From the NCBI GenBank assembly GCA_951804945.1, contig OX638162.1:10726001-10790000 (forward strand): a DNA stretch of 64,000 bases, given 5' to 3'. Positions within the stretch are counted from its first letter, which is position 1. Each line of letters starts with the position of its first letter. The translations under genes were made by a program, and so were the position numbers. Positions 1 through 7,900 of the stretch are shown piece by piece. Source of the stretch: Podarcis cretensis (lineage: Eukaryota). Under the pieces are notes generated by a model. It made no database searches. It saw only the letters and a program-made list of their open reading frames with translations, and was not told the origin of the DNA.

Positions 1-224
1 CAGAGCCAGAGCCAGAGCCGCACACGGAAACGCCGTTTACCTTCCCGCTGGTAAGCGGTCCCTATTTATCTACTTGCACCCGGAGGTGCTTTCGAACTGC
101 TAGGTTGGCAGGCGCTGGAACCGAGCAGCGGGAGCGCACCCCGCTGCAGGGATTCAAACCGCCGACCTTTCGATCGGCAAGTCCTAGGCGCTGAGGCTTT
201 AACCTTTAGTGCCACCTGCGTCCC
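1..224 (-). mobile_element. Sauria SINE, young subfamily (5' part; 3' part outside window), inserted in ERV integrase
   Basis: Reverse complement begins GGGACGCAGGTGGCACTAAAGGTTAAAGCC with tRNA-like A/B boxes; about 97% identical (7 differences) to the SINE at 29293-29663; integrase codons resume at 225. Confidence 0.93.
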
Positions 225-769
225 AGAATTGCGCAAAAAGCTGTGCTCAATTCTGTGAAACTTGGAATAGTCACCATTTATTTGGCATCCCTTATAATTC
301 TCAAGGCCAAGCTATTGCTGAACGTGCTAACCACACTTTGAAAACTGCTTTAATCCGGCAGGAAAAAAAGGCCGGAGTCCCAGCCTCACTTTCAGAAAAG
401 GAAGGCTGGTTGGCTAGTGTTCTCTTTACTCTTAATCATTTGAATGTTTCCATACAGGATCATGAATCCTTTACTCGGCTCCAAAAGCATTTTCAGCAGA
501 AAGAGATACTTCCAGCCCCGCTGGTCCGTTATAAAATATTACCCTCCAACGAATGGAGTGAACCAGTGAAATTGATTACGTGGGGAAAGGGTTATGCTGC
601 AGTTTCTACTCCACAGGGTGCTCGCTGGGTTCCCGCACGCTGCGTCTGCCTCTATCATGGCTTGGCAACAGGCCCTGCAGAATCCGATACCACAGTTCGA
701 CGGTCAACTGCAGATCGCCCAGGATGCGACGCCCGGCCCCCCCAGGACTCGCAAGCGGGGAAATCGTAA
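225..769 (+). pseudogene. pol: Retroviral integrase C-terminal part, interrupted upstream by a SINE
   Basis: GIPYNSQGQAIAERANHTLK (catalytic Glu region) and LITWGKGYAAV...RWVPAR, typical of class II integrases; stop at 767-769. Confidence 0.92.
600..616 (+). promoter_or_regulatory. Probable env splice acceptor
   Basis: tttctactccacag lies in the WGKGYAAVSTPQG codons, the position used by betaretroviruses; first downstream ATG (657) has strong Kozak context atcATGG. Confidence 0.65.
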
Positions 770-2135
770 TGGACCAGTGACGTGGGGCCAAATAAAACCA
801 CTCTCACTTCAAGCTGAACAGTTTAGAAAGGAAAAGCACCTGGAAGCAACCCCTGATAATTTGCTTCTATGCCTCATTTCATGCCTTAATATAAATTCCA
901 TGATAGTGCTCATTTTCAGTGTTTTGTTTTTGCCCCTCTCTGCTTCCGCTCCTAACAGCGGTGATTCCACACCAATAAATGTGTGGGAATCTTTTGCAAA
1001 AAACCTCAATGTTTCTTCCTTTTGCCTAACTCAACAGGTATCAATAGGTGAAATCCTTGGCTCTTGCCTTATCCCTGTTTGCCATGACCCTTTTGATATG
1101 CAAAATGATACCTGGTTTTATTCATCCCTACCCCAAAATGATTCCCTTCGCACCCTTGGTTATTCCGGTTACCATCACTGGGGTAACCAACTGCGTCGAC
1201 GCCCATCTCTGGCAATTGATTTGTTAACCCCATACGTGGCCTCCTCTAATGCCACTTGTGCCCGTATGGTCAATTGCACTAAAACCAACTGTGTGAAAAT
1301 GGGCAAGGATAACAATTTTAATTGCTCTAATTATGTAAATATTTCATATATATATAAATATACAGAGCTGCCTGAAGGCTGGTTCTGGTCGTGCCCAGGC
1401 TATACATTCAATTATATTCCGGCAAACATCAGCCATGGCACACCTTGTTGCTTAAGCCGTTTGTCCATCATTTTACCCAAGAAGCATCATTTATCTCGCT
1501 CTCGATATCAACGCTCTGTAGAATTGACTAATGATTGTGATGGTTCTGTTTCTCTCCCTAGCAGATCTGAATATATTTCTCTAGCTGTCTCTCTCTTAGG
1601 AGTCCCTGGACTGGCTGTACGGAATAGCAGGAATATTAATTCTTTAGCTTGCTCTGCAGCAAAAGCTCTGAACTTTACCTCACAAGCCCTTCACCTTTTG
1701 AATAAAGAGCAGAGTGAGCTCCAACATGGACTCTTACAGAATCGCGCTGCAATTGATTATTTGCTGATGCTTCATCATTATGGATGCGAACAAGTGGATG
1801 ACATGTGCTGTTTTAATATTACTGACAATTCTAAGGCTATTCAAAAATAGATTTCTCATTTGCAAAATCTCACACATCACATCAAACAGGACGATGGACT
1901 TCCTGGCCTCTGGGATTCGTTTACCCAGTGGCTCACTGGCTGGTTGCCAAATCTGAATTGGCTTCGCAATCTTTTCCAATATGCTATTGTCATAGTATGT
2001 ATATTAATTTTGCTATGTTGCTTCATCCAATGCATCCCTGGTCTCATACACCTTTGGTTTCAGTGTTTTTCTCCTCCTCAGCCACCCAATAAAATCATTG
2101 CTGCCTACTTTGCGAAATGGCAGCACCAACAGTAA
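657..2135 (+). pseudogene. env: ASLV-type envelope glycoprotein with one premature TAG at 1848-1850 (397-aa ORF; 492 codons if read through)
   Basis: SU NVWESFAKNLNVSSFCL...SCLIPV; furin site RYQR; Cys-flanked internal fusion peptide; ISD LQNRAAIDYLL and CX6CC (CEQVDDMCC); membrane anchor YAIVIVCILILLCC in the same frame after the stop. Confidence 0.92.
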
Positions 2136-2149
2136 ACATTAGGGGAGAT

Positions 2150-2307
2150 GTGGGCAGAATTATTTCGGGCATGCGCTGGCAAACCACGAATCCCGAAGTA
2201 TTTTTGTCCCATTCACCCTGAACTCACTTAACAACATCGGTGGGCAGAATTATTTAGGGTATGCGTTGGCAAACCACGTATCCCGATGTATTTCTGTCCC
2301 CCTCACC
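2150..2307 (+). repeat. Two ~68-nt direct repeats (period 90), each folding into a long hairpin; ERV 3' UTR
   Basis: gggcagaattatttcggg...tggcaaacca...cccgaagtatttttgtccc at 2152-2210, second copy at 2242-2300. Confidence 0.85.
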
Positions 2308-2310
2308 ATT

Positions 2311-2333
2311 AAATAAAGAAAGAAAGGGGGAGA
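2311..2333 (+). other. Polypurine tract
   Basis: aaataaagaaagaaagggggaga directly before the LTR TG. Confidence 0.9.
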
Positions 2334-2848
2334 TGATGGGATGCTATGAGTCTTGCACATGACTGTGGCCTGATGGGAAGTCTTGCTCCTAAGCTTCGCT
2401 TCTGTACATAATGCTGCACAAACCATCCTAATACTAAGACATTCACTCACCACTTTAGAATGTTCAGTTCACATTGAGTTCAGGAAAACATTGTCCTTTG
2501 ACCTGTTCTTATATGCATAGTTGATCACATCTACGGAACGTGCTTGTTATGCTCTTTTAAGTTTCCTATATCAATCATTAGTAATTGTTTTAAGTCTTAC
2601 TATATTAACCATTGGTTATAATTTAATTAGGAGGTTTTCATGCCTGTCTAGTTCTGCGCTCCCTTTCCCAGTCTTTAATCTATTGGTGATTAATGCAACC
2701 TTTGCTTTGTACTTGTGTTAACCAATCAGCAATAAGCACATATGTGGCAATGCTGTAATAATCAATAAAAGAGGCTCCTTGGGACTTGCTCGAGGAGATG
2801 CCTCCCAGATGACACTCGCTACCTGTCTGTCGTTATTTCAACCCAACA
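2334..2848 (+). mobile_element. 3' LTR (~515 bp)
   Basis: Termini TGATGGG...CCCAACA after the PPT; CCAAT at 2722; AATAAA at 2764-2769. Confidence 0.85.
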
Positions 2849-4692
2849 GATCCCCACCCCAACGCCAGTCCAGATGACTTCAAAACATATTCCCCACCAC
2901 CCAACAACCCACAAACAGGCTAAAATCTGACACAATCAGCACAATGGTGGCACCAGAGCGTACCAACACCCACATCCCCACCCCAACATTCTGCTAATAA
3001 CATGTTGCTAATAACACTGGCAACACTGCTTATGAACCCTATACCCAACATTGGCGTCACAAAGACGCTTAACACTGTGTCACTGACCACCCCCTATCAT
3101 AAATGACAGGGAGGATGGTCTACCCCTGAACTAGGCCATCCATGCCAGCTGAGACTCAGGACCAACCGGCTAAACGCCATATGGCCCAAAATACCCCTAA
3201 CAAACACCTATATGACTACATATAGGATATTCTCTATAACCTAGCATACCCACTCCTCCCAAACAAACTAAAGAAAATTCCCACAACACTTAATAGGTAC
3301 ACACAGACCATGCTCAAAGCATGGAAAACAGAAATAGGCAAACTATCCCCAACCCCAGCCACACTAATCTCCCTGGCGTACCACCTATTATTCCACCATG
3401 CAGCACAAAACCTCCAGATTAAAAACCTGGCGAACCAAAGGCTTATATCGCCCAATAGACTTTTATAAAACCTTTGTCAACACAAGAAATACAAGACAAA
3501 CTAGAAGACACCCAAATGCCCTGGTTAACACAACACCAAGTACATGCCCTCTTAAACAACCCAACAGTAAAATCAGCAGCAACTAGGCCCCCGACAACCT
3601 TCGAAAACCTCCTAACAACAAAGGGAAACGGTAAAGGGACGGTATCCGCAATATACAAAATACTACTCCAAAATCCCTCAAACCCCCTAGACACAATCAA
3701 AAAACAATCGGAGAATGACATAGGCTATGAGATTAACCCCACTCAATGGACCAGAATGTGGTCTAAACCCCCCTTTAAATCCATATCAATGAAAAGAAAA
3801 GAACTCACTTTGAAACTCACCTAGAGGTGGTACCTAACACCAAGAAAACTAGCGCTAATACGCCCAGGAACCTCACCAAAATGCTGGAGAGGGTGCACCT
3901 CCACAGGCACATACCTCCACATGTGGTGGGAGTGTCCCAAAATCCAACTATTCTGGACAACAGCCATGCAAGAAATAGGTAAAATAACTAAGCAAGTATT
4001 AGACATCACCCCAGAATTGGCCCTACTAAACATCTTCCAAGACAACAATGCCCATTTACACCACAAAGAACTCATAACCCACCTACTTTCAGCAGCCAGA
4101 AACACCATAACCAGACACTGGAGAGACCTGTCAGGAGTAAGCATGGACCAATGGTACCAAATAGTATGGGAAACAGCCCTACTAGAAAAATTAACCAATA
4201 AACTGAAACTGACACGGGGACAAACAGAAGAAGATGCCTTTACCCCAGTATGGCGCCCCTTTATCACATACACAGCCCAACAAGACAATGACAATAATCC
4301 ACCAACAGCATACAAATCAATATGGCTAACCTGATCCGAAACACCCACCCACCCCACTCACACACGAAAACAAAGATCACCACATCCAATCACAAACAAA
4401 CAACCACACCCTAGGCCAACCCCAACCTCTCTTACCACCAAAGGAACACAAGTGAACAAAACAAACAGCGCTGACACCAAACCCTACATACATTAAGCAT
4501 AACAGAAACATCGCCACCCAACCCCACCCCCACCCATCTTCCCTCCCTCCACCCCCTTTCCCCCTCCCCAATGTCTCAACAAATGAAACGGATTTGTAAA
4601 AATGTTACATGGAAAAAATATGAGAGACATTACACATACTTCTGTAAAACAAGAAAATCTTTAATAAAAAATTTAAAAAACAACAACAAAAA
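2849..4692 (+). mobile_element. L1-clade LINE 3' portion (degenerate ORF2 C-terminus, 3' UTR, A-rich tail); 5' boundary uncertain
   Basis: WYLTPRKLALIRPGTSPKCWRGCTSTGTYLHMWWECPKIQLFW Cys/His knuckle; stop and frameshifts; AATAAA plus A-rich tail 4663-4692; 2849-3230 assigned only by shared A/C skew. Confidence 0.8.
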
Positions 4693-4971: not shown

Positions 4972-7900
4972 CTGAGGAAACAAACAAAAAACAATTGGAC
5001 TAAAGGGAAGAAGAGAAACCAGCAGTGTGAGCAGGGAGTCTGGAAGTACTGGAGTATTTAGGTCACTAGAAAACACATTATCTGGAGCAAACATTTTTGG
5101 GCAAACGAAACCGAACAATTTTAACTGAAGATACATTGTAAGATATTTACAGCTGGGATGGTTCTAGAAAGCATTTGGTTATCACAAACCTGCTCCCAAT
5201 TTGAATGTGCAACCCAGCTCCTATGTGAGGCTTTCATTTCTTGAACCGTGGCAACCTTGACCACCCTCCTTGCTCCTCAGTTCTACTCATCCAGACTTAC
5301 TTTTCTTTCTGAAGGTTTTCAATCTGTTCCGTCAAAACCCTCTCTTCTTCCTGCATGGCAACTTTCTGCTGCTCAGAAACCTCTGCCTCCATGGCCTCTT
5401 CGCCACTCAGGACCTCTTCAGAAGCATCAGAGGCAGATGGCAACCGGAGAGGAGCTGGAGATGAAGGACTTGGGTAGGCCCCACGATGTAGCCGACCTTT
5501 ACCCTGTAGGCACAGTAGCGCTAATGAGGAGCACGGCCTTTTAAGCCCACTCTGAAAATTACTGACACCCCTGATATATGTATGCAATATAACGAGCAAA
5601 CAAACAACACCTGTGTGTGACTGGCAGAGAAAGACAAAACAGGGAGCAAATACACATTTAAGGACACACGAATTATTTCAGAGGTTCTTTAAAAAAAAAA
5701 CATTTCAACTATAGATGATGAGCAGAATTTTGGCAGGTATCAGAAGTCACTCCTTTATTCTACAGATGTAGTTTACAACAAAGGTACCTCTGTTGGCCAA
5801 AGCATCTGTGCAGGAAGAGAATATCTGGATTTCTACATATATTACTATACTATATAGTATATTATTATGCTATACTATATATAGTATACTGTACTATATA
5901 AAATCTTCCCACACAATATTGTAAGAAACCTTTGTGTTTTTCTATGTGGAAAGTCTGAGAACAAGAGATAAATCCACCTATAGTTGATTATCCTCCATTT
6001 TGCACTGTGTAGTGAAATTCCATGACTAACAAGTGCATGAGGGTAGCTATCCCTGAAGACAGTGCCATGAAATATTCAAATTCTGATCAGGCAGTTCCAG
6101 ACTGTCCTATGGAACTGGATCCTACATGATCACACCTGTCTCAATTTATACAATTTCCTTTAGTGCTGTCTCTTTTCTTCTTGAATAAGCTTGCTCTAGA
6201 GAAGCAATCCTGGACCTCTGAAAGGGTGGAGCCGACGTTCTTATAACAGGAAAGAATTCCCTTTTCCCTCTTAGGCGGACACTGTGTGCCGTACTCCCAG
6301 ATAAATAGAAAATACAGTATCGCAAGGTTGCGCCTCTGTGCAAGAAGACCCAATGAAGCGCTGAAAGCAAATTTGATACAATTTGCTTTCTTAAGAGTCA
6401 AGGCTTTGAACTGCACACTTGCAAGATTGCATTTAAGTCTAGAAGAAAAACTGCAAAAGTGAGAATGGAGCGTGAAAGATCTTTTTTTATACACTACTGA
6501 GAAACTGCATAGAAACACAAAAACAACTTTTGATGGATCAGAGGAAATGGTCCCATCTACTTCAGCACCCTGCCAGCTGGTTTTGGAAAGGGCATGAAGG
6601 CAATTGCACAGTACACCCACGTGCAGGTACAGAAAATGTCCAGTAATTGTTTTTCTTAGGGAAAAGCAGCTTCAAGTGAAAGAGCTCTTGTGAAACATGG
6701 TGGGGAGAAGGCATTGAATCCCTCTCTCAGACTGCCAGATCTGTACTCCAATCTGTACAGCGGCTTTTCTGCCTAAAGAATTGTAGATGTGCACTCTCAG
6801 AAAGATGTGCTTGAAATCCCAAAGGAAAAGTTGTTTGGGAGCAGCGATTTGAGGCAGGGATGTGGCAGGTAGATGAAACACCACTCACTCCTCATCTCCA
6901 CTGCTCCTCTGCTCAGAATTACCACCCCCAGAGCTCCACCTCCTCCAGAAAAGGCCTATGTTAAATTTGTATGTGTGGGACAGGTTGTTCTACTCAAAGT
7001 AATGTCTGAATGCTTATCTAAATTTAAAAATATTTGATTCTCTAATGTGGTTATGCCCCACTGGTGTTGTTGTTGAAAAAAATTAAACAGGACTATATTT
7101 AGTATATGGGACGCGGGTGGCGCTGTGGGTTAAATGACAGAGCCTAGGATTTGCTGATCAGAAGGTCGGCGGTTCGAATCCACGTGATGGGGTGAGCTCC
7201 CGTTGTTCGGTCCCTGCTCCTGCCAACCTAGCAGTCCAAAAGCACACCAAAGTGCAAGTAGATAAATAGGTACCGCTCCAGGCAGGAAGGTAAATGGCGG
7301 TTCTGTGTGCTGCTCTGGTTCATCAGAAGCGGCTCAGTCATGCTGGCCACATGACCCAGAAGCTGTATGCCGGCTCGCTAGGCCAATAAAGCGAGATGAG
7401 TGCCGCAACCCCAGAGTCGGTCACGACTGGACCTAATGGTCAGGGGTCCCTGTACCTTTACCTATATTTACTATCCAATTGAATCCAATTATTTGAGCTG
7501 TATCTCAGTGATAGAACATGTGCTTTGTATGCCTAAGGGTTATCAACTTCTATCCCAGGCATTTCAGTTAAATGCATCCTGAGTAACAGGTATTGTGAAA
7601 GATCCCTGCCTAGGATCCTACAGAGCCACTGATGGTCAGAGCAAACAAACCAGTCAAGATGAACCAACACAGGCAGTACCCCACTTCTGATAAAGTGAAA
7701 CACTCTGGAGAGCAGCAGTTTGTTCCTGGAGACAATACTGAGCTAGACAGATCTGACTCTGCAAGGCAACTTCCTATGTTCATTTACTTGCAAGGAAGAT
7801 TCATAATTACCATTGGCATTTCTTCTAGCAAGAAGAGGGGGAAAGCAGACTCCTACATTGCCCCTCTCTGGTAAGGTAATGGATGATTTCTTGTTTTCTG

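Follow-up and report, generated by a model that had tools for sequence, protein, structure and literature searches.

In the interval from env to the 3' LTR of a lizard endogenous retrovirus (ERV) we find a tandem pair of short hairpins that is probably a cis-acting export or expression element of the viral RNA, whether read by a Rec-like viral product or working constitutively. The narrower proposal, that the hairpin is a docking site for the product of the Rec/Rem/Rej-like leader of the neighbouring env, is a prediction that we hold tentatively, and we consider it likelier than a constitutive element. The wider reading draws on the position of the hairpins, their strand-specific folding, their family-wide retention, the Rec-homologous leader and the unstructured LTR. 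Elements of this kind are known; the novelty lies in the sequence found here, in how small it is, in the lizard host and in the association with an alpha-type env and a Rec-like leader. Throughout, the window denotes the whole stretch of 64,000 nucleotides that was analysed.

A lizard provirus with a beta-like pol and an alpha-type env

The 3' half of an ERV on the plus strand occupies the first 2.85 kb of the window, with the following features:

203-769, plus strand: 3' part of the integrase of a class II, beta-like pol (Pfam IN_DBD_C, E 1.3e-06, above the cut-off; ORF list)
657-2135, plus strand: env of alpha (ASLV-like) type (ORFs, Pfam, homologue comparison)
657-950, plus strand: long env leader of ~98 aa, Rec/Rem/Rej-like (PF15695 HERV-K_REC, invariant columns)
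2062-2081, plus strand: candidate splice acceptor, a pyrimidine tract and CAG, 52 nt before the env stop and in the env frame (crude score)
2141-2150, plus strand: first polypurine tract (PPT)-like motif with TG, a probable ancestral env-terminal PPT (9-mer common with the true PPT; env-frame peptide)
2150-2217, plus strand: hairpin copy 1, with an extended stem at 2141-2219 (repeat, folding; present in all four runs examined)
2218-2239, plus strand: spacer, which varies between family members (contig joints, loose ends)
2240-2307, plus strand: hairpin copy 2 (repeat, folding), with two mismatches private to the locus or its close kin
2312-2333, plus strand: true PPT, purines throughout except one T, then TG
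2334-2848, plus strand: 3' LTR, with TG start at 2334, AATAAA at 2764-2769 and structure not above chance

A SINE-like repeat at 1-202, which we take to be a Sauria SINE, truncates the integrase on the 5' side; a further copy of this repeat lies at ~7100-7333 on the minus strand. The env is interrupted by an in-frame stop at 1848-1850 and has its terminal stop at 2133-2135, from which an interval of 198 nt leads to the LTR. Its closest named relative is the Podarcis lilfordi protein P0001 (93% identical), and a protein search returned 20 homologues, including ones from turtle, Sceloporus, Anolis, caecilian, rabbit and mole-rat. Using Pfam we obtained weak matches of env to Ebola-like HR1-HR2 and, in two relatives, weak matches to Avian_gp85; because of these matches and of an internal fusion peptide flanked by cysteines, which we take to be an ASLV-like feature, env was placed in the alpha-like group. 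Lizard proteins that join the same env to pol carry HERV-K-like names, and its sequence marks the element as a beta-like provirus of lacertids that has an alpha-type env. The 3' end of the LTR would be the CA at 2839-2840 or that at 2847-2848. Directly after it, at ~2850-4334, lie fragments like the 3' end of LINE ORF2, a label that we assume, with no significant Pfam match. Bats, lizards and caecilians carry alpha-like env lineages whose host range has been described (PMC13568524); relatives occur in squamates, turtles, caecilians, rodents and lagomorphs, in keeping with our env search. The accessible text of that paper covers neither the leader nor the env-LTR interval, and its supplements and those of bioRxiv 2024.03.17.585361 may list the present env family.

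A putative Rec homologue at the start of env

The env leader carries a basic cluster, RTRKRGNR (744-767), followed by a conserved TWGQxK helix. Compared with PF15695 (HERV-K_REC) it gave E 0.0054 and 17.2 bits, below the 27.5 cut-off, over positions 26-70 of the 87 in the profile. Likewise, PF15695 was detected in all six long-leader relatives tested (E 0.14 to 1.6e-05) and in none of the four with other leaders, and a profile search with the leader retrieved ten short reptile proteins, tortoise, snakes and tegu among them, of which nine matched PF15695, one above the cut-off. A Rec-homologous leader is in this way found in turtles, lizards and snakes (P0003-P0006, P0011, P0021-P0030). A PDB search with the leader profile gave a single match (E 0.55), which was disregarded. 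Rec-type proteins have an arginine-rich motif and a leucine-rich export signal. The matched stretch spans the export signal (NES) of Rec, at aa 54-60 (PMC2649029), with its hydrophobic pattern kept only in part, and the Rec NLS falls outside the match. The basic cluster lies just ahead of the matched stretch in the window and in four of five aligned relatives, and the snake homologues have few basic residues. These matches, weak but consistent, suggest that the env leader is a Rec homologue.

The env of P0002 is 81% identical in SU/TM, with an unrelated leader and tail, and by sequence both ends of P0002-type env appear to have been swapped. Since its leader is unrelated, this env can travel without the Rec-like leader.

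In Rec-type systems the active form comes from a doubly spliced mRNA or is the leader once released. Near the end of env, the candidate acceptor at 2081, a strong one by prediction, ranked first among 114 AG sites in 230-2850 by our own crude score, and the five family differences listed in its tract keep or add pyrimidines. The second exon of HML-2 rec starts at a comparable position of the env tail (PMC11379458). A middling donor at 1037, not outstanding among 117 GT sites, would join this acceptor in frame in a Rem-like layout. In the literature searched we found no description of a reptile Rec-like system or of the present hairpin.

Two hairpins in the interval from env to the 3' LTR

Within the window, 2150-2217 and 2240-2307 form a direct repeat of 68 nt with a period of 90, at 88% identity (E 6e-19), and a similarity search of the 64 kb found no third copy. 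The lower stem, 2152-2169 with 2192-2209, is predicted to form 17 pairs with one U-U opposition, and the TGG-CAAA-CCA cap is identical in the two copies. Eight differences separate the copies: one changes G.U to G-C, one G.A to G.U, two are mismatches in copy 2 and the remaining four are bulged or outside the core. In the period, the lower stem, the cap and the copy differences that improve or break pairing, the original prediction, made from the letters alone, was borne out, as it was in placing the pair between env and the PPT, like the MPMV CTE and the ASLV DR, and in pointing to a PPT-like motif followed by TG ahead of copy 1.

Folding of the 68-mers gave z scores of -4.85 for copy 1 and -5.45 for copy 2, while stretches of 82 nt gave -5.1 and -4.2 on the plus strand compared with -2.2 and -0.6 on the minus strand. 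The whole region gave z -5.6, with none of 200 shuffles as stable. When 46 windows of 80 nt and 17 of 150 nt were folded across 1851-2830, z fell below -3 only in those overlapping the hairpins, and the LTR at 2334-2800 gave z +1.1, which argues that the present U3-R holds no RcRE-like structure. Since no other part of this region folds, the hairpin is left as the sole candidate for a response element. Copy 1 is the longer of the two, as the PPT-like motif pairs with 2210-2219 to give a hairpin of 79 nt (pair probabilities 0.92-1.0), a basal extension that copy 2 does not have. In longer folds the 3' end of copy 2 (2297-2303) can pair with the true PPT (2325-2331; probability 0.7-0.97), much as copy 1 pairs with the first PPT-like motif.

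The AAGACA loop motif has a role in the MPMV CTE, which binds NXF1 directly and exports RNA in the absence of viral proteins. We did not find it in 2141-2333, which includes both hairpins, in agreement with what was noted originally; the sole AAGACA in 1-2900 lies in U3, at 2436-2441, in a region without predicted structure, and about one is expected there by chance. Rfam includes a dr1 family, and none of the three and four Rfam matches obtained at E up to 10, all far below gathering, was to a retroviral family. No tRNA gene was found, and no Pol III cassette was seen by eye.

The predicted fold also allows a viral pri-miRNA pair, from which Drosha and Dicer would cut the hairpins out of Pol II transcripts as in the E (XSR) miRNA of ALV-J. 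The readings considered originally included the export element that we favour and overlooked this one, which we regard as quite unlikely and which has an alpharetrovirus precedent at the same position, in the ALV-J 3' untranslated region (PMC3911700). The arms of the extended copy 1, 39 and 36 nt long, would give a 55-nt precursor and compare well with an optimum of 33-39 nt (PMC5340965), and the best Rfam match is to a miRNA model, mir-55 (E 0.019). However, that match scores 22 bits where gathering requires 53 and concerns shape only, the loop has 4 nt, and copy 2, being without the basal extension, has a stem length outside 33-39 nt. Of three helper motifs, which are helpful and not required, copy 1 has none (basal UG, apical UGU/GUG, CNNC at +16 to +18). 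Furthermore, the would-be 5p seed region varies among family members, whereas the XSR seed is nearly invariant (PMC3911700). The two elements are alike as hairpins in a 3' untranslated region of a virus with an alpha-type env, but ALV-J E (XSR) is a single element of 148 nt with a sequenced miRNA and a fixed seed (PMC3911700), and here the Microprocessor motifs are absent and the seed region is variable. At 2155-2165 the 5' arm agrees in a few letters with the ALV-J XSR miRNA at the latter's 5' end (probe, PMC3911700), a stretch too short to exceed chance.

Origin of the hairpin

The 9-mer GGGGAGATG occurs at only two places on either strand of the whole 64-kb window, at 2142 and 2327, which are the site ahead of hairpin 1 and the junction of the true PPT with the LTR. 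Past its stop, the env frame reads *TLGEM at the PPT-like motif, while the turtle env P0003, with four of seven cluster mates, ends in KNKKGEM and the anole env P0006 in KNEKGG. The PPT-like motif probably sits where these relatives end env, and the hairpin is probably the retained start of an older LTR, an origin that we infer from the 9-mer and the peptide ends. The hairpin has no similarity to the present U3, and a duplication of the element's own LTR start was rejected for this reason. It was also feared originally that the repeat might be a unique decayed duplication of a PPT and LTR start; the missing similarity to U3 and the presence of the hairpin in all four runs examined speak against this. 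An origin from a PPT and LTR start had been taken as grounds for dismissing the element, and here the original prediction holds in part: such an origin is probable, yet function is possible all the same, as in SERV-K/MER11 (PMC11379458).

In the sequence of events that we propose, a PPT would have closed env in the ancestor and U3 would have come next, the arrangement of the turtle and anole relatives. A template switch would then have supplied another LTR and PPT, leaving the former PPT and part of the former U3, its first 70 nt, in place behind env, and later duplications of this old PPT/U3 unit would have added binding sites. Solo LTRs would be expected to leave a depth step or loose end at 2149, and there was none among those listed (24 of 117 loose ends). 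DNA of the relatives was not found among viral contigs by pattern, env, env alignment or integrase, nor among metagenome contigs by env alignment. The sole metagenome pattern match, L001, was rejected as chance, having no similarity to the provirus.

Retention and variation among family members

The stretch was present in 20 of 24 listed runs, and we examined four of the 24, from four coded organisms, each in the form of contigs, which are not phased copies; the contig data listed comprise 40 of 188 differences, 24 of 117 loose ends and 32 of 557 pieces. The hairpin was present in all four runs, with differing env tails, spacers and second-copy junctions. One contig retained 2134-2219 (13 differences in 86) behind 106 unrelated letters that replace the preceding env tail, and one joined 2222 to 2140, so that the hairpin is followed by the PPT-like motif and the hairpin start again, a joint that would be either a duplication or a captured older LTR. 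Second-copy junctions were of four kinds, with periods of 67, 89 and 89 in contigs and 90 in the window. The second copy of one run retains the strand of the central stem, its differences being in the lower 5' strand, the upper stem and the loop. Depth falls after 2240, remaining low over the opening part of U3 in three runs; therefore most members differ from the locus in the spacer, second copy and U3 start, and have env and hairpin 1 in common. Depth also rises at 2148-2209, ~1.9-fold in X1 and ~1.4-fold in X14, with no rise in X15 and X17; depth being a sum over contigs that carries no copy number, this is a hint only. Joints that skip part of the region (2217-2309, 2220-2319, 2223-2311 and 2145-2241) may be last copies placed on the first position and are no proof of one-copy elements.

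At the locus itself three core pairs are broken, one in copy 1 and two in copy 2, and in the family the letters at these sites are compatible with pairing (among the 40 of 188 differences listed). By comparison with the family, the three breaks appear private to the locus, and the improving and worsening copy differences appear to be largely drift after insertion. As the copy differences are mostly private to the locus, they do not amount to covariation. The pairing-friendly differences noted originally are thus no evidence of selection, since other members agree with one copy and the locus is the outlier. The response or constitutive element proposed originally is supported in part, in that position, folding, retention, the Rec-like leader and the unstructured LTR fit it. 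Among members, four stem sites vary in the differences listed; at three of them a one-sided change leaves the pair intact and the fourth opens, a result that is not significant, and no two-sided compensatory change was seen among the 40 of 188 differences. Listed differences per base were 0.06 and 0.09 in the hairpins and 0.07 in env, and so are no fewer in the hairpins. A count in which seven of eight stem differences were pair-compatible (null 0.40, p ~0.01) was set aside, because four of the eight merely undo changes private to the locus.

Such figures would suit a neutral relic, a recombination scar of old PPT and U3 start whose hairpin served, if at all, solely in the donor LTR and whose extra copies are slips of reverse transcription. 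They fit it in that no covariation is seen among the listed differences, whose density is no lower than in env, that changes break pairs in both copies at the locus, and that elsewhere in the family second copies show differences in the lower 5' strand as well as in the upper stem and loop. We nevertheless consider a relic unlikely. The hairpin is kept while the env tail, spacer and 5' part of U3 differ between members, its folding is strong and strand-specific, and breaks that arose after insertion are expected at a locus where env is broken too. Furthermore, SERV-K/MER11 deleted a functionless flank and kept its functional insert (PMC11379458). By these comparisons the hairpin is a family trait, and the evidence that would argue for its function is retention across rearranged members, not covariation.

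Relation to known export elements

The closest layout is that of the primate SERV-K/MER11 (PMC11379458), likewise a beta-like ERV in which a PPT derived from the donor comes after env, then a non-coding insert, another PPT and the LTR, and which has a Rec-like leader and a present LTR without an intact response-element structure. The hairpin region, with a second, upstream PPT directly before the insert, matches this layout in sequence, with a putative donor. The SERV-K/MER11 insert is 726-850 nt long, comes from an HML-8 LTR and has proven Rec-independent activity (PMC11379458), whereas here we see a hairpin of 68-79 nt in one or more copies, an inferred donor LTR, a lizard host and an alpha-type env.

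That precedent speaks for a constitutive cis element, which would recruit host export or translation factors without a viral protein in the manner of the CTE, the ASLV DR or MER11; it might also serve RNA stability or packaging in a DR-like way, and the leader would be kept just as the env signal peptide. The matching SERV-K/MER11 insert works without sRec (PMC11379458), and ASLVs, whose env type is that found here, keep at least one 115-nt DR at the env-LTR site (PMC3856414). A variable number of copies suits an additive site for host factors, and the small size suits one better than it suits a Rev-type scaffold. On the other side stand the lack of AAGACA in the hairpins, the lack of a stem of 150-175 nt with two internal loops, a CTE feature (PMC7551171), and the lack of a retroviral Rfam family at E up to 10, together with a basic cluster and helix of the leader that are conserved in turtles, lizards and snakes beyond the need of a plain signal peptide. 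On balance we judge a constitutive element somewhat unlikely.

Among individual elements of this group, the ASLV DR resembles the hairpin pair in being a direct repeat placed after env and before the 3' LTR, in one or two copies, in viruses with an alpha-type env (PMC3856414, PMC7551171). It differs in its length of 115 nt and in flanking src (PMC3856414). The hairpin pair is alike in position and repeat form, but by sequence it is probably not a DR, no homology having been found among the Rfam matches at E up to 10. The MPMV/SRV CTE shares the env-PPT position, a stem-loop and a beta-like pol (PMC7551171, PMC12789967), but is a stem of 150-175 nt with two internal loops and not two separate hairpins of 68-79 nt (PMC7551171), a paper in which the AAGACA loop motif is named for the gamma-CTE. 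In size, loops and motif the hairpin differs from an MPMV-type CTE and, by sequence, is not one.

The reading that we prefer among the specific ones, a site for the Rec-like product, follows the Rec/RcRE, Rem/RmRE and Rej/RejRE-JREE systems of HML-2, MMTV and JSRV (PMC11379458, PMC2649029, PMC2577329, PMC3185594, PMC12789967), which have in common with the present element a Rec-homologous long env leader, a structured RNA at the env-U3 junction and, here as a candidate, a splice acceptor near the env end. In MMTV (PMC2577329), JSRV (PMC3185594) and HML-2 (PMC11379458) the response elements lie at the env-U3 junction, at the env end or in U3. The hairpin alone, or within a composite element as in JSRV, would bind the product of the env leader, and the bound product would help unspliced RNA to leave the nucleus or to be translated.

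The known response elements are, in contrast, far larger (433 nt for the RcRE and 490 nt for the RmRE; PMC11379458, PMC2577329), multi-stem structures in U3 or across env-U3, while only short hairpins fold here. Lying upstream of the PPT, the hairpin would not be copied into the 5' LTR, and the cases described in the accessible texts are all mammalian viruses with a beta-type env, compared with a lizard ERV with an alpha-type env. On account of its size we do not file the hairpin as a Rec-type response element, though it may work like one. Two further points weigh against a site for the leader product by analogy: SERV-K/MER11 keeps a Rec-like product that has no added effect on its constitutive insert (PMC11379458), and the HML-2 signal peptide alone is described as having no RNA export activity. 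The Rec-dependent and constitutive readings are not exclusive, because JSRV combines protein-dependent and constitutive roles in one element (PMC3185594). Other roles, such as packaging alone, are very improbable.

In its fullest form, which we regard as doubtful, the model would have a reptile lineage with beta-like pol and alpha-type env carry a Rev-like two-part system, formed by a Rec-homologous leader and a minimal 70-nt hairpin that was captured from an LTR and repeatedly duplicated. If the two-part system is true, no Rec/Rem/Rej system outside mammals would precede it, its response element would be the smallest of the class, and Rec-type systems would be far older than HML-2, MMTV and JSRV. 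A constitutive hairpin would be a new and compact export element, and a neutral one would still give a clear second example of a double-PPT layout made by recombination. The ways in which beta-like retroviruses change from protein-dependent to constitutive RNA export, or back, have been learned from a few mammalian cases. In reptile ERVs, a hairpin of 70 nt next to a Rec-like leader has a size that suits structural and binding studies. Because some families have the leader and others lack it, one can test which of the systems is older and whether the element co-evolves with the leader.

As an observation apart, three predicted Podarcis lilfordi proteins (P0014, P0017 and P0018) have a reverse transcriptase fused to the middle of env at the same point in all three, which suggests an amplified subfamily without the leader that has a common pol-env deletion, or else a common annotation splice.
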